The notes beneath the pieces are model-generated. The model saw nothing but the letters and a program-made list of their open reading frames with translations. It was not told the origin of the DNA and ran no database searches. Both the position numbers and the translations under genes were made by a program. A stretch of DNA of 64,000 nucleotides, from NCBI GenBank assembly GCA_963844965.1, contig CAWJQC010000004.1, positions 41,609 to 105,608 on the forward strand. The letters run 5' to 3'. Source of the DNA: an uncultured bacterium (GTDB lineage Bacteria; Patescibacteriota; Minisyncoccia; UBA6257; 2-01-FULL-56-20). Shown here in pieces: positions 14,513 to 59,186 of this stretch (positions are counted from its first letter, which is position 1; every line of letters begins with the position of its first letter).

Positions 14513-14608
14513 TAGAAAATAGTAAGTAGAAATTAGAAAATAGAATTTTGTCGGGATTTTCGGCGAAGTTCCGATTTCTATTTTCTATTTACTATTTTCT
14601 ACTTTCTA
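14513..14608. repeat. AT-rich low-complexity inverted repeat / bidirectional terminator hairpin (TAGAAA-word family)
   Basis: TAGAAAATAGTAAGTAGAAATTAGAAAATAGAA ... TTCTATTTTCTATTTACTATTTTCTA lies between convergent dnaE and the cytidylyltransferase gene. Related word repeats occur in many intergenic gaps. Confidence 0.6.
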
Positions 14609-15006
14609 TCTACGATATTGCTTTTATATCTATGCGGCTCGTGCGCCCTCAAAACAACCATCTTCGGCCGCCAACGAAATTCCTTGCGGTGATTTTTCAG
14701 GTCCTCTTTGAGCGCCACCTGGTCGTAACCCAAAGCGATAACGTCGGGCTTGTGCTTTTTCACGACCTCGTAAACGCCGAGTTCAGCGTCGCCGAGCGCG
14801 ACCTCGTCAACAAGAGGTTCTTTTCGCAGGTCGTCAATTCTCCGCGCGAGATTTCTCTGCGGCAGACGGCCCTTCAAGTACTCAGCCGTATGGTCCTGCG
14901 CGACTGCGACGAGCAAATAATGGCCGTATTCCCTGGCTTGTTTAAAAAATTGACGGTGACCTTCATGGATGCCGTCAAAAACGCCGAAGACCAGAACTTT
15001 TTTCAT
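14599..15006 (-). CDS. cytidylyltransferase-like (HxGH) nucleotidyltransferase
   Basis: MKKVLVFGVFDGIHEGHRQFFKQAR carries the GxFDxxHxGH nucleotidyltransferase motif, as in the RibL/TagD-like family. 135 aa. Confidence 0.6.
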   Translation of the reverse strand: MKKVLVFGVFDGIHEGHRQFFKQAREYGHYLLVAVAQDHTAEYLKGRLPQRNLARRIDDLRKEPLVDEVALGDAELGVYEVVKKHKPDVIALGYDQVALKEDLKNHRKEFRWRPKMVVLRAHEPHRYKSNIVDRK

Positions 15007-16755: not shown

Positions 16756-17215
16756 TCACTCTATCTTAGTAATCTGGTATACAATCTGTCCCGCCGGCGC
16801 GTTAACGGTCACGCTGTCGCCGACTTTCCTGCCGATGAACGCTCTGCCGAGCGGCGATTCGTCGGAAATCTTTCCTTCCTCCGGCTTCGCTTCATAAGAA
16901 CCGACTATCGTGTAACGCGCAATCTGATTCTCCTTTCTTGGCGAAAACCGTGGAGCAGACGCCAACTTTCTCCGCTCCTTCTGTCTTCTTTATAATCACC
17001 GCTTTTTTCAGAAGTTCCTCCAGATCAAAAATCCGCGTCTCAACGAGCGCCTGCTCTTCCCTCGCCTCCGCGTACTCGGAATTTTCCGAAAGGTCGCCGT
17101 ATTCCTTCGCGTGACGCAAACGCTCCGCGATTTCCGCGCGTTTCGTATTTTTCAGAACGTCAAGTTCCTGCTTCAATTCCTCAAGACGTTCTTTTGTTAA
17201 GTAATATCTGTCCAC
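16756..17215 (-). CDS. greA: transcription elongation factor GreA, split by one frameshift near 16930-16940
   Basis: The N-terminal coiled coil (EYGDLSENSEYAEAREEQ) is in one ORF. The C-terminal domain (ARYTIVGSYEAKPEEGKISDESPLGRAFIGRKVGD) is in the next frame. Removing one A from gccaagAAAgg restores ...FAKKENQIARYTIVG. Confidence 0.85.
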
Positions 17216-18141: not shown

Positions 18142-18144
18142 TGA

Positions 18145-18232
18145 AATAGAAAATAGAATTTAGAAAGTAGAAAGTAGTAGGTAGTAGGAAGAAAAAACTG
18201 AAAATTTCTAAATTCTAATTTCTGATTTCTAA
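18145..18232. repeat. AT-rich low-complexity inverted repeat (TAGAAA/GTAGTAG words)
   Basis: AGAAAATAGAATTTAGAAAGTAGAAAGTAGTAGGTAGTAGG ... TTTCTAAATTCTAATTTCTGATTTCTA lies between the GT2 gene and map. Confidence 0.5.
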
Positions 18233-18276
18233 ACAATTAAAATTATAACACAAAAGAAACAGCTGAAATTCCACGC

Positions 18277-21193: not shown

Positions 21194-21379
21194 ATGTGGA
21201 ATTTACCAGACAAAATAACGGCGCCCCCTCGGCGCCGGATTTTTTTCGGCAGTTGCACATGCTTAGTTATCTAAATTTTCCCAATGCGGAGGCCATTGCC
21301 TCTCAAAAAAGAAAGGGCCGGATTATCCATCCGGACCCTGCGGCCTGCCGTGGCCGCTTCAAACCGGTCTCGCCCCGCC

Positions 21380-24562: not shown

Positions 24563-24574
24563 GTTGGCGTTAAA

Positions 24575-24700
24575 TTTCTAATATCTAATTTCTAATTTCT
24601 AAACAATATTTGAAATTCCAATGACAAAAACTTAAAATGGTCTGTTTTCAATTTGGGACTTAGAAATTGGGGTTTGTTTAGGATTTAGAAATTAGGAATT
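24575..24700. repeat. AT-rich low-complexity inverted repeat (TTTCTAA words)
   Basis: AAATTTCTAATATCTAATTTCTAATTTCTAAAC ... TTAGAAATTGG..TTTAGAAATTAGGAATTAGG lies between rpsE and rplR. Confidence 0.5.
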
Positions 24701-24707
24701 AGGGCTT

Positions 24708-25629: not shown

Positions 25630-25736
25630 TGATAACAAATGGAAAATGTAAATATCAAAATGTAAAATGACAACCCAAAATGCAAAAATTTTTAATTCTG
25701 AATTGTAATTTTGATTTTTGCATTTTAAATTTTACG

Positions 25737-26311: not shown

Positions 26312-26392
26312 GATTATAAATAAATTTTCAATTTTTAATTTTCAATTTTAAAATGTTTGGAAATTGTAAAATTGAGAATTATAAAATTGTTT

Positions 26393-38255: not shown

Positions 38256-38287
38256 TTGTTTCTGCGTAATTCCGCGTAGTTCCGCGC

Positions 38288-53623: not shown

Positions 53624-56305
53624 ATGAGTGGGATAAAAATAAATCTTTCTCTCAGCGAAATCCCAGGCATCGGCCCGCGTTTTCTGGAACGGCTGGGAAA
53701 ACTCGGCATAAAAACCGTCCGTGATCTCATTTATCATTTTCCGGCCCGCTACGAGGATTTCTCCCAGATATACAAAATTTCCGACGTTGAGCCGGGGGAA
53801 CAGGTAACAATACGTGGCGTTGTTGAAGACACCAAACTGCGGCGGACTTGGAGAAAACACATGACAATCGCCGAAGCCCTGATCCGCGACGATTCCGGAA
53901 CGATACGCGCCATCTGGTTCAACCAACCATATGTTTTGAACACTCTGCGGGTCGGGCGCACGGCGAATTTCGCAGGCAAAATATCCATATCGGACGAGGA
54001 CGAAATTTATTTGAGCCACCCGGCTTATGAAATCGTCGGCAGTCGGGAGTCGGGAACGGAGAAGCAAGAAACAAAACATACAGCGCGGCTCGTCCCCATT
54101 TATCCCGAAACGCGCGGCCTCACATCCAAGGGGTTGAGATATCTGATCCAGCCAATTCTGAAAAACAGCGAACAGCTGGAGGAATGGCTGCCGCCGGAAG
54201 TTCTGCGCGAAAATAATTTTCCCGAAATAAACCTTGCGCTCAGATCCATACACTTCCCCGAAAAAACCGAGGATGCTCTTGTCGCGAAAAAACGCTTCAC
54301 TTTTGAAAACCTGTTCCTGCTGCAACTCGCCAATCTTGAACAAAAATTGAAACTCGCGCGCGAAAAAGCGCCAGTGATCAAAACCGACATAGAACACCTG
54401 AAAAAAATGATCTCGGAACTGCCATACGAACTCACGTTTTCGCAAAAGAAATCATTGTGGGAAATCATCCAGGACCTCGCCAAAAAACAGCCGATGAACC
54501 GCCTGCTCCAGGGCGACGTGGGCTCCGGCAAGACGGTTGTCGCGGCGCTCGCCGCGGTAATTACCGCGGAAAACGGGCTGCAGACCGCGTTTATGGCGCC
54601 AACCGAGGTTCTCGCGAGACAGCATTTTGAAACATTGAAAAAATTATTCGCCGGAATTCCCTCGATCCATCAACCCGTAGTTGGGCTTCTCACGTCAAGC
54701 GAAGCAAAAATCCTCTACGCGACAGACCTTGAATCAAAAATCAAAAAACCGGAGTTGCAGGAAAAAATAAAAAACGGCGAGGTAAAAATAGCCATCGGCA
54801 CGCACGCTTTGATACAAAAAGACGTGGCGTTCGGCAATCTTGCCTTTATCATCATTGACGAACAGCATAGATTCGGCGTCTCACAACGAGCTGCGCTCGT
54901 TCGCGGACAGACGCAGAATGATAATACGCGGACAGACGCTGAACAACTACTATACGAAAAAACGACGTTTGAGATAAGAAAAAGTCTGTTTGAGGTGAGA
55001 AAACAACTGGGCCTTGGTCATAAAGAAGTGGTGTATCAGAAAGCATTGGAGGAGGAGTTCAAGAAATCCGGTGTAATATTTGAGAAAGAAAAGAAAATTC
55101 CTGTCGTTTATAACAAGAAAAAGATTGGCGTTTATCAACCGGATTTTGTCATAGATAATGAAGTAATTTTGGAACTTAAGGCTCTTCCCTTTATCGGCGG
55201 CATCGAAAAAAAACAGCTGTGGAATTATTTGAGGGGTTCGGATTACAAACTCGCGCTTATGGCAAACTTTGGACCGGAAAGATTATCCATAGAGCGGGTA
55301 GTATACGATATTGCGCGGAGTCGGCGGCTGTCAGCGTCCGGTCAGCAACTGTCCGCGCCTATCCCCCACCTCCTCTCAATGTCCGCCACGCCAATCCCAC
55401 GCACGCTCATGCTCACCGTCTTCGGCGATTTGGATATATCGCTCATCACCGAACTTCCCGCCGGCAGAAAAAATATCGTAACAAAAATAATCCCCCCACG
55501 GGGCAGGAGCGAAGCCTATGAATTCATCCGCGGCGAAGTGAGGGCCAGCCGGCAGGTTTTTGTCATCTGCCCCCGCATTGACAAACCGCAGACAGGCGCA
55601 GACCACACGCAGACAAACGCAGACAAGACACAGACAGACGCAGACAATTTTCAGCGGCTGTCTGCGTCAAGTCAGCGACTGTCCGCGTTAAGTCCACGTA
55701 AGTCCGCGTTAGTGTGGGAAGTAAGATCCGTGAAAGAAGAATTTGAAAAATTATCCAAGAAAATTTTTCCGGATTTGCGCGTCGCCATGCTCCACGGCCA
55801 GCTCAAGCCAAAAGAAAAAGCGGGTATCATGAAGGACTTCCGCAACTACAAAATAGATATTCTCGTTTCAACTTCCGTCGTGGAAGTTGGCGTGGACGTG
55901 CCGAACGCAACAATAATGATGATTGAAGGCGCCGATCGCTTCGGGCTGGCTCAGATCTACCAATTCCGCGGACGCGTGGGGCGCGGCGAACACCAATCCT
56001 ATTGCTTCCTGTTCACGGATTCGTCCGCCAAAACTACGCGCGAGCGGCTGCAGGCCGTCCTTGAAGCCAAGAACGGCTTTGAGCTCGCCGAGAAGGACCT
56101 GAAGATCCGCGGTCCCGGCGAATTCCTCGGCACGGCGCAGACCGGCTTTCCCGACACGGCGATGAGCGGCCTCATGAACCCGGAGCTCGTGAAAGCAAGC
56201 CGCGAAGCGGCGGCAAAAATCGTCCAAAAAGATCCGCTTTTCAAAAATTATCCGCTCCTGAAAACCAAATTAAACGAGTTCCGGAAGGAAATCCACTTGG
56301 AGTAG
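53624..56305 (+). CDS. recG: ATP-dependent DNA helicase RecG carrying two in-frame insertions
   Basis: Wedge/OB N-terminus; motif I GDVGSGKT; motif II [11 protein letters not shown]; motif III [9 protein letters not shown]; later [15 protein letters not shown] and QFRGRVGRG. 893 aa against ~680-700 expected. The excess is accounted for by 54908-55357 and 55589-55708. Confidence 0.92.
   Translation: [893 protein letters not shown]
54908..55357 (+). other. 450-nt in-frame insertion in recG encoding a GxxExxY-family (PD-(D/E)XK-like) domain flanked by inverted word repeats
   Basis: [87 protein letters not shown] matches the GxxExxY pattern. The flanks are cgcggacagacgcagaat..tacgcggacagacgctga and the reverse-complement-like ctgtcagcgtccg..ctgtccgcgc. 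Confidence 0.75.
55589..55708 (+). repeat. 120-nt in-frame palindromic insertion in recG (solo copy of the same word-repeat arms)
   Basis: cagacaggcgcagaccacacgcagacaaacgcagacaagacacagacagacgcagaca attttca gcggctgtctgcgtcaagtcagcgactgtccgcg. It translates as [40 protein letters not shown]. Confidence 0.7.
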
Positions 56306-56571: not shown

Positions 56572-59017
56572 CTACTGCTCCATATGACCGACAAGGGTGC
56601 ATGTATAAAAGTTACCAGTGCATTGGGATGAATTAGTAACATCCCAACAAGTTGAATAAGTCTCCAGCGCGCCACTACAAGGAGTGGTATTAGCGCATGA
56701 ACTGTTGTAGTAACGAATATAAGTCATATACTGCGGGCAGAAGTAAATCGGCGTCCCGCCTGTAACTTTAAGAGTGCCGGGAATGATGACGTTGCCGTTT
56801 GCTAGAACCTGTATAGCTGCTCCGGTTGTAGTAGCTGTACCAGTATTCGGCATACTGCCGCCAATACCGACGTTGCCGGCATAGTTGATGACTAATTTAT
56901 TTGATTCTGCCGCACTAGGATAATTTCCCACCATAAGCATGGCGCCCTGATTAACATCGCCCACATCGAGCAGCACCGCATCCGCATTGGTCGTAGCCGC
57001 GGTGCCGTAGAACGTGCCGGTATTGGTATCCCTGTTCTGCTCGAACTGGGTGCCGTAATCACCGGTGTTATACAAGAACGAATAGGTGGGATTACTAAAA
57101 TCGCTGTACATCTCAAGGCCGGGGCCGGTACCGGCAGTATTTGAATATGCATAAAATTGATAGTTGGCGGGCGCCGCCGCTCCCACCCCGATTCCGGAGG
57201 TGAATAAACCTCCTCCAGTTACCGTCAGTTTCTGGGTCGGCGCCGTATTCCCGATGCCGACGTTGCCGGAGGAATTCCAAATACCGGTGCCAGGCATCGT
57301 AACGTTGCCAGTAAAGGTCGGGCTCGCTAAAAGCGCCGCTCCGGTAACCTGCGCTACCCCGTAGTCACCAGATGCCGCCACCACGGCTCCGGTTCCGCCA
57401 AATACCGAGGTGACGCCGCCGCTCGGCCAAGCCGTGATGCAATTCGCCCCGGAGATGCAATATTGAGTGGCGTTTGCGGTAACCGTTGACGTACAGAGCG
57501 TACCCTCCGCCTGAGTTTGTGAAATACCCACCGTAGCCGCCGGAGTTGGTGGCTAATCCATAAACTCCTACGCCGTTACCTGCCGCTGACTGTCCGGCAA
57601 CCCCTACCCAGTAAGAAGCGCCGACCTGTCCGCCGAGAATCCCATTCGTTGTGGCGTTGCTATTATTTCCCGTTACCGAGCCGACCCATGATGAATTGAC
57701 GGCGCTCGTGAAACTGCCTACGCCAGCAACAACCAACGGATATGCCGGCGTCGTCGTCCCGATGCCGACGTTGCCGTTCGTGATGGAGAAATATGGACCA
57801 CCCCCCATCCCAGTGCCAAGCGCCAAATTGAGGCCATAAGATTGTGACGTCAAATCAGCGTATGTAAATGCTCCGTTGCTGGTGGTGAACTTTATCCAAT
57901 CTACGTTTGACCCGTTTGTATTGTCTAGCCGTAAGGTAGACGTACTTCCACTCTGAATATCAAGTTTTGCGACCGGCGCCGTGTTCCCGATGCCGACGTT
58001 GCCGTTGTTATTTATAAACAAGGCGGGTGACGCGCCGGATGAGTCAGAACCCTGAGTCAAAAAGGCCATTGGAGAACCGTTACTGCCGATCCGGGCCCAG
58101 TTCGCAACTGCTGCCGGTCCAAGCTGTAGCAAGGCATCGGTACCGTTAGATGTCAAGTCAAACTTGGCGAATTTTGACCCGTTCACGACATGCAACGTCG
58201 TTGCCGGCGACGCCGTCCCGATGCCGACGTTGCCGCCATATGCAAGCGTCATTATTTGGGAGTACCAACTGCTGGGGTTCTGATACCCAATCGTCAAGAC
58301 CGAATTATCTGACGCTGGTGCAAAAACATACCCATTATTACTGCCAGCCATATCGCGGAGCTTGAAGGCTCCAAAGACATCAAGTGTATTTTGTGGTGAC
58401 GGCGTCCCGATGCCGACCGAGCCCGAGAAATACCCGCCGCCGTAGACGGAGAGGGCCTGCGGCAAGTTGCTGGCGGAGGATGTGGTAACGCCCAGAGCGG
58501 AAGAAACAAACACACTGTGGGGGAACCCGTAGGGAACGCCGGAATCGGCCTCTAGAGAATTGAACACCGCGGGCGTGACATAGCCGGCGTTGACGGTCCC
58601 GTTAAAATTGCCGTGGATCGTGCCGTTCACGTCAAGCTGGTAGCCAGGCGACGCCGTCCCGATGCCGACAGAACCGTCATTGCGCACGACAAGTATGGGC
58701 GACGAATTCGGATAAAGGATCTTCAATGTGTAATTCGCGGCATCAGCGGACGAAGAAGCAACGATGAGGAGTTTGGTTTCCGGCAGAGGCGTGGGCGTAC
58801 CAACGCCCAGATTCCCAGCCGCATTAGTGCTTACCGCTCCCGAACCGAAACCGGGGGTGGGAGGAGGAGAGGCAAACGCGTAGTAGGTAGTAGGTAGTAG
58901 GTAGTAGGTAGTAGCGAGAATGACGAAAAACAAAACGTGCGGCGCAAAACTCGGACGCACACCGTAAAACTTGCGGCGGAGCTTTTGCTGTTTTTGGAAC
59001 AAATCTGCGTCCATCAT
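56572..59017 (-). CDS. large secreted tail-fibre-like repeat protein (GNVGIG repeats), split by one frameshift near 57525-57540
   Basis: About 815 aa when ORFs 57365..59017 and 56572..57531 are joined (..GGGYALYVNGY / GISQTQAEGTLCTS..). The motif NGNVGIG(T/N)(A/T)(S/A)P recurs. It has an N-terminal hydrophobic segment and a Cys-rich C-terminus. Confidence 0.6.
58880..58914. repeat. heptanucleotide tandem repeat (GTAGTAG)x5 inside the 5' coding region of the tail-fibre-like gene
   Basis: gtagtaggtagtaggtagtaggtagtaggtagtag encodes ..ATTYYLLPTTYY.. on the minus strand. An inverted partner (TACTACC x3.5) lies at 59025-59049, upstream of the ATG at 59017. Confidence 0.8.
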
Positions 59018-59186
59018 AATAATTTACTACCTACTACCTACTACCTACCGCTTTTAATTGTTTCGGGGCGACAATCTCATAGCTTTATTATATAAGAACA
59101 GGGAAAGATATGTAGAAAGGGGTGTGCATAGGCGCGAAAACTGCCCGAGCGGCGGCCGCAAATTTCCCGGCCATCCGGGATATAAA

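Follow-up and report, generated by a model that had tools for sequence, protein, structure and literature searches.

Why should a helicase gene contain, in frame and between two of its most conserved motifs, the whole of a second protein domain? The question is raised by a recG gene at positions 53624-56305 of a 64,000-nt stretch of contig CAWJQC010000004.1 (assembly GCA_963844965.1). This stretch is referred to here as the window; all positions are counted within it, and the features of the gene are read from its plus strand. The insert in this recG gene is probably a selfish mobile cassette, in which an open reading frame (ORF) for a nuclease of the PD-(D/E)XK type (the GxxExxY family) is enclosed by inverted arms, and which spreads in the manner of homing elements.

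The recG ORF encodes 893 amino acids (aa) and runs uninterrupted through two insertions, as was seen in the ORF list, the hidden Markov model (HMM) matches and the AlphaFold 2 (AF2) model. Judged from its sequence, the product is a RecG helicase: it matched the NCBIfam RecG equivalog NF008168 with 765 bits (cut-off 718), the Pfam domains RecG_wedge, DEAD, Helicase_C and RecG_dom3_C were detected, and helicase motifs II and III are intact. In sequence and translation, motif II (DEQH, aa 412-415) lies at 54857-54868 on the 5' side of the first insertion and motif III (MSATPIP, aa 586-592) at 55379-55399 on its 3' side. The two motifs are 167 residues apart. Among about 70 close homologs that lack the module the spacing is 18-49 residues, with 69 in one further homolog; it is 19 residues in the near relative P0007, which puts the net gain in the window RecG at about 148 codons.

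The inserted element measures 456 nt from arm to arm (54902-55357; 152 codons, in frame), from the outermost unit CGCGGACAG to its complement CTGTCCGCG, with empty (L083) and filled (L084) alleles compared. The initial annotation had given a length of exactly 450 nt with the frame preserved; the frame is indeed kept, and the length differs slightly with the boundaries chosen. Between the arms lies the predicted nuclease core (aa 442-563, 54947-55312). The complete GxxExxY domain that had been proposed here, nested in frame between motifs II and III, was recovered when the 150-aa insert was searched on its own, well above the cut-offs and over nearly the full models: TIGR04256 (GxxExxY) matched with E 3.5e-31 and 108 bits (cut-off 35) over model positions 2-116 of 116, and PF13366 (PDDEXK_3) with E 2.3e-29 and 102.6 bits (cut-off 22) over positions 3-116 of 117. 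The signature residues occur in the expected order, GHKEVVY at 55016-55036, PDF with its PD at 55139-55144 and ELK at 55172-55180, and the motif residues are invariant across a 27-sequence alignment of the module. The module also has the restriction-endonuclease-like alpha/beta fold, and by HMM, motifs and fold the insert is a member of the GxxExxY family. It departs from the stand-alone architecture of that family (about 125 aa) in being nested in an 893-aa RecG; like the other nested copies, it has no start or stop codon of its own.

The inverted repeats that had been noted at the borders of the insert were borne out: CGCGGACAGACGC occurs twice on the left (54902 and 54927) and its reverse complement twice on the right (55324-55357). 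The left arm (54902-54943) consists of two units with this core, and in the right arm (55321-55357) these units recur in inverted orientation. Both arms are built from 10-11-nt units with the core CGCRGAC, repeated in tandem and reverse complemented on the right. Two units make 21 nt or seven codons, so that unit arrays preserve the reading frame, and direct reading showed the core to be free of stop codons in all six frames. With up to two mismatches the arm word occurred 18 times in the window, compared with a mean of 6.6 in 100 shuffles, none of which reached 18. Every occurrence in the window with no mismatch or one falls within recG, and two further small clusters of the core word in the window (17067-17133 and 38261-38281) had no repeat structure.

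The arms appear to be conserved as nucleic acid. The arm type is identical across all host genes, and the flanking peptides are alike in every host, about TQTxAD/E on the left and PRxSAS/L on the right; the translated arms form hydrophilic linkers that read roughly QTxTDAD and SPRESAS. The left- and right-arm peptides are unrelated to each other and are linked only by the reverse complementarity of their coding sequences, so conservation acts on the nucleic acid and not on the protein. Local-alignment scores averaged 25.2 for arms of the same locus, 19.4 across loci and 13.9 for shuffled sequence, and lineage-specific unit variants such as CGCAGAT, CGCGGAA and ATACNGAC shift on both arms jointly. 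The arms are about 79% complementary with a median length of 28 nt, and their units are spaced by about one helical turn. Different arm units, like AATCCGAAT/ATTCGGATT, accompany the RERQYAD nuclease subfamily, and GCGAAT-type units accompany one stand-alone subfamily.

The nested arrangement is widespread. An artefact of assembly or binning, such as a chimeric join, is scarcely conceivable for an architecture that is on record as an identical RecG protein from a 216-kb contig and that recurs, in frame and at the same site, in dozens (more than 90) of independent assemblies. PF13366 was found at the same place in about 45 of the 120 best RecG homologs, all 120 of them from Patescibacteria, with a motif II-III spacing of 161-232 residues compared with 18-69 in the others. 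The initial annotation knew of no description of such nesting. Searches of open-access papers and bioRxiv likewise found no published description of the arrangement, but the architecture is common in the databases, a point that annotation had missed. Several full-length RecGs carry the name 'GxxExxY protein' in NCBI because of the nested domain (P0012, P0015, P0017, P0020, P0024, P0041 and P0102). The bins given for some of these records are Spirochaetia or Nanoarchaeota, and because the RecGs in question are closest to those of Patescibacteria, the records may be misbinned.

Occupancy of the RecG site is patchy. In a neighbour-joining tree of the 120 RecG cores, a simple distance tree, carriers and non-carriers were interleaved, and four sister pairs differed in carriage (P0002/P0007, P0005/P0032, P0008/P0059 and P0011/P0072). 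Site-specific occupancy with patchy spread among close relatives, as expected of homing elements, was thus found in RecG. In P0041 and P0057 the module lies in the RecG wedge domain instead of at the motif II-III site, and both adjoin P0030, which carries it at the motif II-III site, in the tree. A different nuclease subfamily occupies the motif II-III site in P0064, P0079 and P0090.

The module is not confined to RecG. When the insert profile was run against one genome per species, 183 stretches were confirmed, of which the best 80 were kept as loci; in each of the 80 a large ORF encloses the module in frame. The hosts at these best 80 loci were RecG (45), LepA (27) and LeuRS (3), with single cases in SecA, an O-antigen ligase (Wzy), a GT4 and a GT2 glycosyltransferase and an unknown membrane protein that carries two modules. 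In LepA the insertion lies mostly between the ERERGITIK and DTPGH motifs, and in one case at a second LepA site. A word-index search with the insert alone gave 22 matches, and an exhaustive profile search of 1.84 billion representative proteins, which gave 21,266 members at E <= 0.001, was used for the family census. Among the best matches of the latter search, DHFR, GatB, RtcB, transketolase and asparagine synthase were further hosts, which brings the module to at least 12 unrelated host protein families, all in Patescibacteria. A helicase-nuclease chimera specific to RecG, one of the options raised at the outset, is unlikely to be the reason for the element's existence, since the module is also found in LepA, LeuRS, SecA, DHFR and other hosts.

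Some of these hosts have additional features. The membrane protein at L005 2930-5515 contains two nested modules of different subfamilies, each with its own arm type, and a third, ORF-less arm-like stretch near the C-terminus (…SEHSDRFGDSDYAEGF…). LeuRS proteins with the GxxExxY module also hold another nested domain, a serine-hydrolase or NUDIX domain (L048, aa 659-822; L061, aa 588-686). No CGCRGAC arms were found at these NUDIX and serine-hydrolase domains.

Movement of the element between genes of the same kind was traced at the nucleotide level, in accord with the early suggestion of a mobile module caught in a gene, which the patchy occurrence and the range of unrelated hosts also bear out. 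Between L008 and L010, which represent two species of Magasanikbacteria, the recG genes show 505 differences in 2646 nt (19%), whereas from just upstream of motif II to motif III, with the whole element included, only one of 581 nt differs; the low-divergence tract runs about 330 nt downstream of the element. A second pair, L064 and L070, differs by 18.7% over the gene and by about 2.4% over the element. Read as sequence comparisons, these patterns indicate that the element has recently been copied by gene conversion, together with some of its flanks, into a homologous gene that had diverged; lateral transfer into a homologous site together with flanking host sequence is a property of homing elements. 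Over 703 pairs of RecG loci, the identities of insert and host were weakly correlated (Spearman 0.21), and mean identity was 61% for the inserts and 47% for the host helicases.

These data bear on the alternative that the module is an ancient, vertically inherited accessory domain that has been put to use, for example as a RecG nuclease for branched DNA, and that its patchiness arose by repeated loss. For 64 of the 80 inserts the nearest neighbour belongs to the same host gene, the catalytic site is strongly constrained, RecG itself works on junctions, and the sole sequence-level match of the module in the PDB, a weak one (E 0.015), is the junction resolvase T7 endonuclease I. All of this would suit such a domain. 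The same module with the same arms nevertheless occurs in LepA, LeuRS, SecA, DHFR, GatB, RtcB, transketolase and glycosyltransferases, which share no common DNA function. Near-identity is restricted to the element within genes that show 19% divergence, the divergence of inserts follows that of their hosts only weakly, and closely related RecGs hold the module at two different sites. We consider this alternative unlikely.

Relatives that stand outside host proteins give a complementary picture. Four stand-alone copies were traced to their contigs, where they lie between pilus genes, type IV secretion genes, or permease and ABC ATPase genes. The stand-alone copies examined are bracketed by inverted arms, occupy fixed spots inside operons and have their own start and stop codons. 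In two unrelated samples a stand-alone GxxExxY ORF (L085 1864-2322 and L086 223-717) was found just upstream of an ABC-transporter ATPase gene; that of L085 lies between the ATPase gene and a branched-chain-type permease gene. The like positions of these two ORFs imply that site-specific occupancy extends to the intergenic form. A different cargo in a similar stem-ORF-stem layout was observed at L001 2232-2717, where an ORF for a 23S rRNA intervening-sequence protein (PF05635 / bAvd-like) occupies an operon spacer flanked by pilus genes, enclosed by a 72-nt inverted repeat of (AAGACGT)n heptamers and 2.3 kb from a stand-alone GxxExxY copy.

The stem-ORF-stem geometry had suggested, in the initial annotation, an analogy with rRNA intervening sequences. 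According to this explanation the element is removed at the RNA level: the arms pair, RNase III or another enzyme cuts, and the halves are rejoined or stay separate. Besides the geometry, the explanation could draw on a terminal 9-bp stem in the minimum-energy fold of the RNA, on the very strong folding of an ORF-less palindrome further along recG (z -7.3, see below) and on the L001 ORF with its heptamer-repeat arms near a stand-alone GxxExxY copy. Other observations make it improbable. At 79 of the 80 loci the frame is open over both junctions into host sequence, and at the remaining locus (L025) it stops 18 codons past the module; if the segment were excised, selection would not keep the frame open across the junctions. 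The 486-nt RNA across the window element folds no better than its shuffles (z +0.92), and the terminal stem is missing from the centroid structure. Mismatches between the arms showed no excess of sense-strand G.U (61 G.U, 126 A.C), and the arms are only about 79% complementary. The folding and mismatch data lend no support to a selected sense-RNA stem around the ORF, and an RNA stem with the ORF in its loop was rejected as the main explanation. A link to rRNA intervening sequences was rejected as well, with none of the four traced stand-alone relatives in rRNA but all in operon spacers, and the window copy in a protein-coding gene. In one homolog, P0164, the module is nested in RtcB, the RNA-splicing ligase; RtcB as a host is relevant to a model of RNA cutting and rejoining and is probably incidental.

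If the element is not removed, it has to be tolerated in the protein, and structure prediction is consistent with this. An AlphaFold model of the insert alone had a mean predicted local distance difference test (pLDDT) score of 84.6, with the core above 90 and both flanks below 50. The full-length RecG model (AF2; mean pLDDT 79.6) had well-folded helicase parts and a well-folded nuclease domain on disordered linkers, as the domain-on-a-loop idea of the initial annotation would have it. The disordered stretches are aa 428-441 and 564-577, with pLDDT below 50, which are the translated left and right arms, and aa 652-692, which corresponds to an ORF-less palindrome. The linkers and the palindrome peptide are thus predicted to be disordered and the insert to be tolerated by the protein fold.

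This ORF-less palindrome, at 55580-55710, is a second copy of the palindrome within recG and had been missed by the initial annotation. It lies in frame 220 nt downstream of the ORF-bearing element, and in it a short loop separates about three left units from about three inverted ones (repeat families D1-D3, inverted pair I1); Tandem Repeats Finder gave periods of 10 and 21. Its predicted fold is a long hairpin with periodic interruptions (z -7.3 for the sense and -8.2 for the antisense strand), and a fold that is equal or better in antisense is what a DNA-level palindrome would give. The site, just after the ICPRI motif and referred to here as RecG site 2, has a QTxAD...PRxSA palindrome in many homologs, some of them without a nuclease insert, and never held an ORF in the roughly 95 RecGs examined. 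In 657 kb of fetched loci, scanned stringently, there were 14 distinct palindromes of this type (family A), all of them in frame inside long ORFs: at RecG site 2, at a second LepA site, in LeuRS, in Wzy and in one other ORF. In-frame palindromes in several unrelated genes, with an extra peptide that the host protein tolerates, are what defines the type known from Rickettsia. Copy number in the window was two, both in recG. At RecG site 1, the motif II-III site, P0071 and P0028 have arm-like sequence without an ORF. The ORF-less palindromes may be non-autonomous derivatives of the cassette or empty landing sites.

In-frame palindromes of other arm types were also observed at RecG site 2, for example ...SELSEKKNEFGTFGWNS..SDR and TTNNQQLTTNNQQ...SLVVSRKSLVS, in homologs P0002, P0008, P0044, P0079, P0018 and P0021. 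Their variety suggests that there are several families of coding-region palindromes in these genomes.

The ORF-less palindromes allow a different history, in which palindromic mini-elements of the Rickettsia kind came first and the nuclease gene is a secondary passenger that homes into the palindromes and uses the arms for recognition and as repair homology. Palindromes with this arm type but no ORF are common, the 14 from the scan are all in frame and they often lie in genes that also carry the ORF; the pairing of nuclease subfamily with arm type and the spacing of the units by about one helical turn would fit as well. In P0007, by contrast, site 1 is empty and has no arms, which favours arms and ORF as a single unit of gain or loss, and RecG site 2 has the palindrome in many homologs and the ORF in none of about 95. 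Two separate layers therefore seem unlikely, if a little less so than an ancient accessory domain.

Taken with these data, a selfish cassette with homing-type spread remains the preferred reading, and several points weigh against it. Much of the distribution could reflect long residence with repeated loss. In two genomes the copies in recG and lepA are only 59-63% identical, for which reason recent jumps within a genome were rejected; together with the same-gene neighbours at 64 of 80 loci, this implies that the gene-site lineages are old and that jumps between genes are rare. The best relative of the window copy has 70% amino-acid identity, and with no close relative to this copy the evidence for mobility is drawn from the rest of the family. 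Comparison of the nearest empty and filled alleles (the insert-less recG site of L083, around CTCGCCCGCCAGAAAAATTTAATCCCCCAC, and L084) showed no target-site duplication; these alleles share only about 70% DNA identity, a divergence too great for the exact junction to be defined. In the 80 nested copies the catalytic and signature residues are conserved save for one E-to-D change in ExK, and the conservation of P and D in this sample is partly built in, because the locus search pattern included PDF. The pairs compared for transfer were picked for similar inserts, which inflates the contrast between insert and host in the weaker cases; the contrasts in L008/L010 and L064/L070 are too large for this effect. 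Classical homing elements have no need of inverted repeats, and homing alone leaves the arms unexplained. Finally, we infer the making of the break and the recognition of the arms by the encoded nuclease, and its cleavage target is putative.

With these points in mind, a mechanism can be proposed that starts from the anatomy, host range, patchiness, transfer tracts, intact active site and predicted structural tolerance of the element. The cassette would persist in essential genes without splicing, translated through as a surface-loop domain on two disordered linkers. Its length would keep the host frame, the stop-free core would let the arms serve as linkers, and the host protein would still fold. 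No intron or intein would be needed because the element is tolerated as a surface-loop domain, and it would persist in essential genes because its cost is low. Spread would occur by repair-mediated copying (gene conversion) into the same site of a homologous gene, as in homing, and the cassette would rarely move to new genes. The initiating break would be made by the encoded predicted nuclease, with the empty site or the palindromic arms as possible points of cleavage. The arms would be cis-acting recognition sites of this nuclease, a role suggested by the pairing of subfamily and arm type, the helical-turn spacing and the conservation at the nucleotide level.

This mechanism has precedents among known systems. 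PD-(D/E)XK homing endonucleases exist, I-Ssp6803I being one (PMC3384342), and genomes of the Candidate Phyla Radiation (CPR) contain many homing-endonuclease insertions with site-bound relatedness and patchiness, in rRNA genes and with LAGLIDADG enzymes (PMC11270868). In the survey of CPR rRNA insertions, LAGLIDADG accounted for 403 of the 455 ORFs with a known domain, and the PD-(D/E)XK/GxxExxY fold was not mentioned. Like intron- and intein-borne homing endonuclease genes, that of I-Ssp6803I included, the recG element is a small nuclease ORF at fixed sites beside the most conserved motifs; it is patchy among relatives, same-site copies are related across distant hosts (PMC3384342; PMC11270868), and lateral transfer drags some flanking host sequence along. 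Unlike them, it is unspliced and its ORF is translated through: the ORF is continuous and, by Pfam and frame, is not housed in an intein or a self-splicing intron, although Rfam intron families were not searched. It also differs in having tandem-repeat inverted arms and in that cleavage of the empty site is only putative.

Inteins are likewise in-frame selfish insertions at conserved sites of essential proteins and often carry a homing endonuclease. An intein was rejected here, as a Pfam scan of the recG product found no Hint domain and the junctions are low-complexity linkers of variable length without conserved splicing residues. A classical insertion sequence or transposon was rejected as well. 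The element has inverted arms, but its only ORF is of the PD-(D/E)XK type (a predicted nuclease), with no DDE, HUH or serine transposase, and no target-site duplication was seen at the allele pair described above. Intervening sequences of rRNA that carry an ORF in the loop share the stem-ORF-stem layout; the recG element differs from them in lying in a protein-coding gene with the frame kept and in giving no sign of selection for sense-RNA pairing. The stand-alone GxxExxY proteins share the HMM family, motifs and fold of the module and, in those examined, have inverted arms and fixed operon spots. They are encoded between genes, with start and stop codons of their own, whereas the recG module is translated as a segment of its host protein.

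Palindromic elements inserted in frame have been described in Rickettsia (PMC10969869). Like these Rickettsia palindromic elements (RPEs), which resemble miniature inverted-repeat transposable elements, the palindromes described here place palindromic DNA in frame in many unrelated housekeeping genes and are translated into an extra peptide compatible with the protein fold (PMC10969869). No autonomous partner is known for RPEs, whereas a version with a nuclease ORF in the loop exists here. Further differences are the low copy number within the window (two), hosts among Patescibacteria instead of Rickettsia, and an unrelated repeat sequence.

There is a real chance that the arrangement represents a distinct class of mobile element. 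We propose tentatively, as something less probable than the selfish cassette itself, that palindrome-borne nuclease cassettes form a class of autonomous mobile elements in Patescibacteria that had escaped recognition, with three roles for the arms. They would be recognition sites for the cassette's own nuclease, homology for repair-mediated copying and translatable, stop-free linkers. Such arms would let a homing-type gene colonise essential coding sequence without an intron or intein, and ORF-less in-frame palindromes would remain as non-autonomous copies or landing pads.

Where introns are spliced out of the RNA and inteins out of the protein, the cassette would offer a selfish nuclease gene a third way of living in an essential gene: as a loop domain that is translated through and brings its own disordered linkers. 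It would connect two phenomena that have been treated separately, homing endonuclease genes and in-frame palindromic repeats of the Rickettsia type, and, if the proposal is true, it would be the missing autonomous partner of RPE-like in-frame palindromic elements. It would also give a role and a context to the GxxExxY/PDDEXK_3 family, whose function is listed as unknown (PMC3424549) and which the present census puts at 21,266 representative proteins. Practical consequences follow for annotation, as in the several RecG proteins named for the nested domain, and for phylogenetic markers, since lepA, leuS, secA and recG can hold laterally moving segments. As a compact enzyme, specific for a sequence or structure and with a target that can be read off, the nuclease would also be a possible tool, provided that it recognises the repeats of its own arms.

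Repeats of a different kind were observed elsewhere in the window. Intergenic hairpins with tandem 7-nt arms and their complements, for example (TAGAAAA)n ... (TTTCTAT)n, lie at 14513-14609, 18144-18233, 24573-24703, 25637-25733 and 26323-26390. Many of them are located just past the ends of ORFs, and the three that were folded gave z values of -7.9, -3.4 and -5.4. The hairpins might act as terminators, or they might be the non-coding equivalent of the in-frame palindromes. A (GTAGTAG)5 array at 58880-58914 codes for ...TTYYLLPTTYY... within the 5' end of ORF 57365-59017 on the minus strand. Just upstream of the start of the same ORF, at 59025-59048, a roughly complementary (TACTACC)3.4 array was found, so that the two arrays straddle the start codon.

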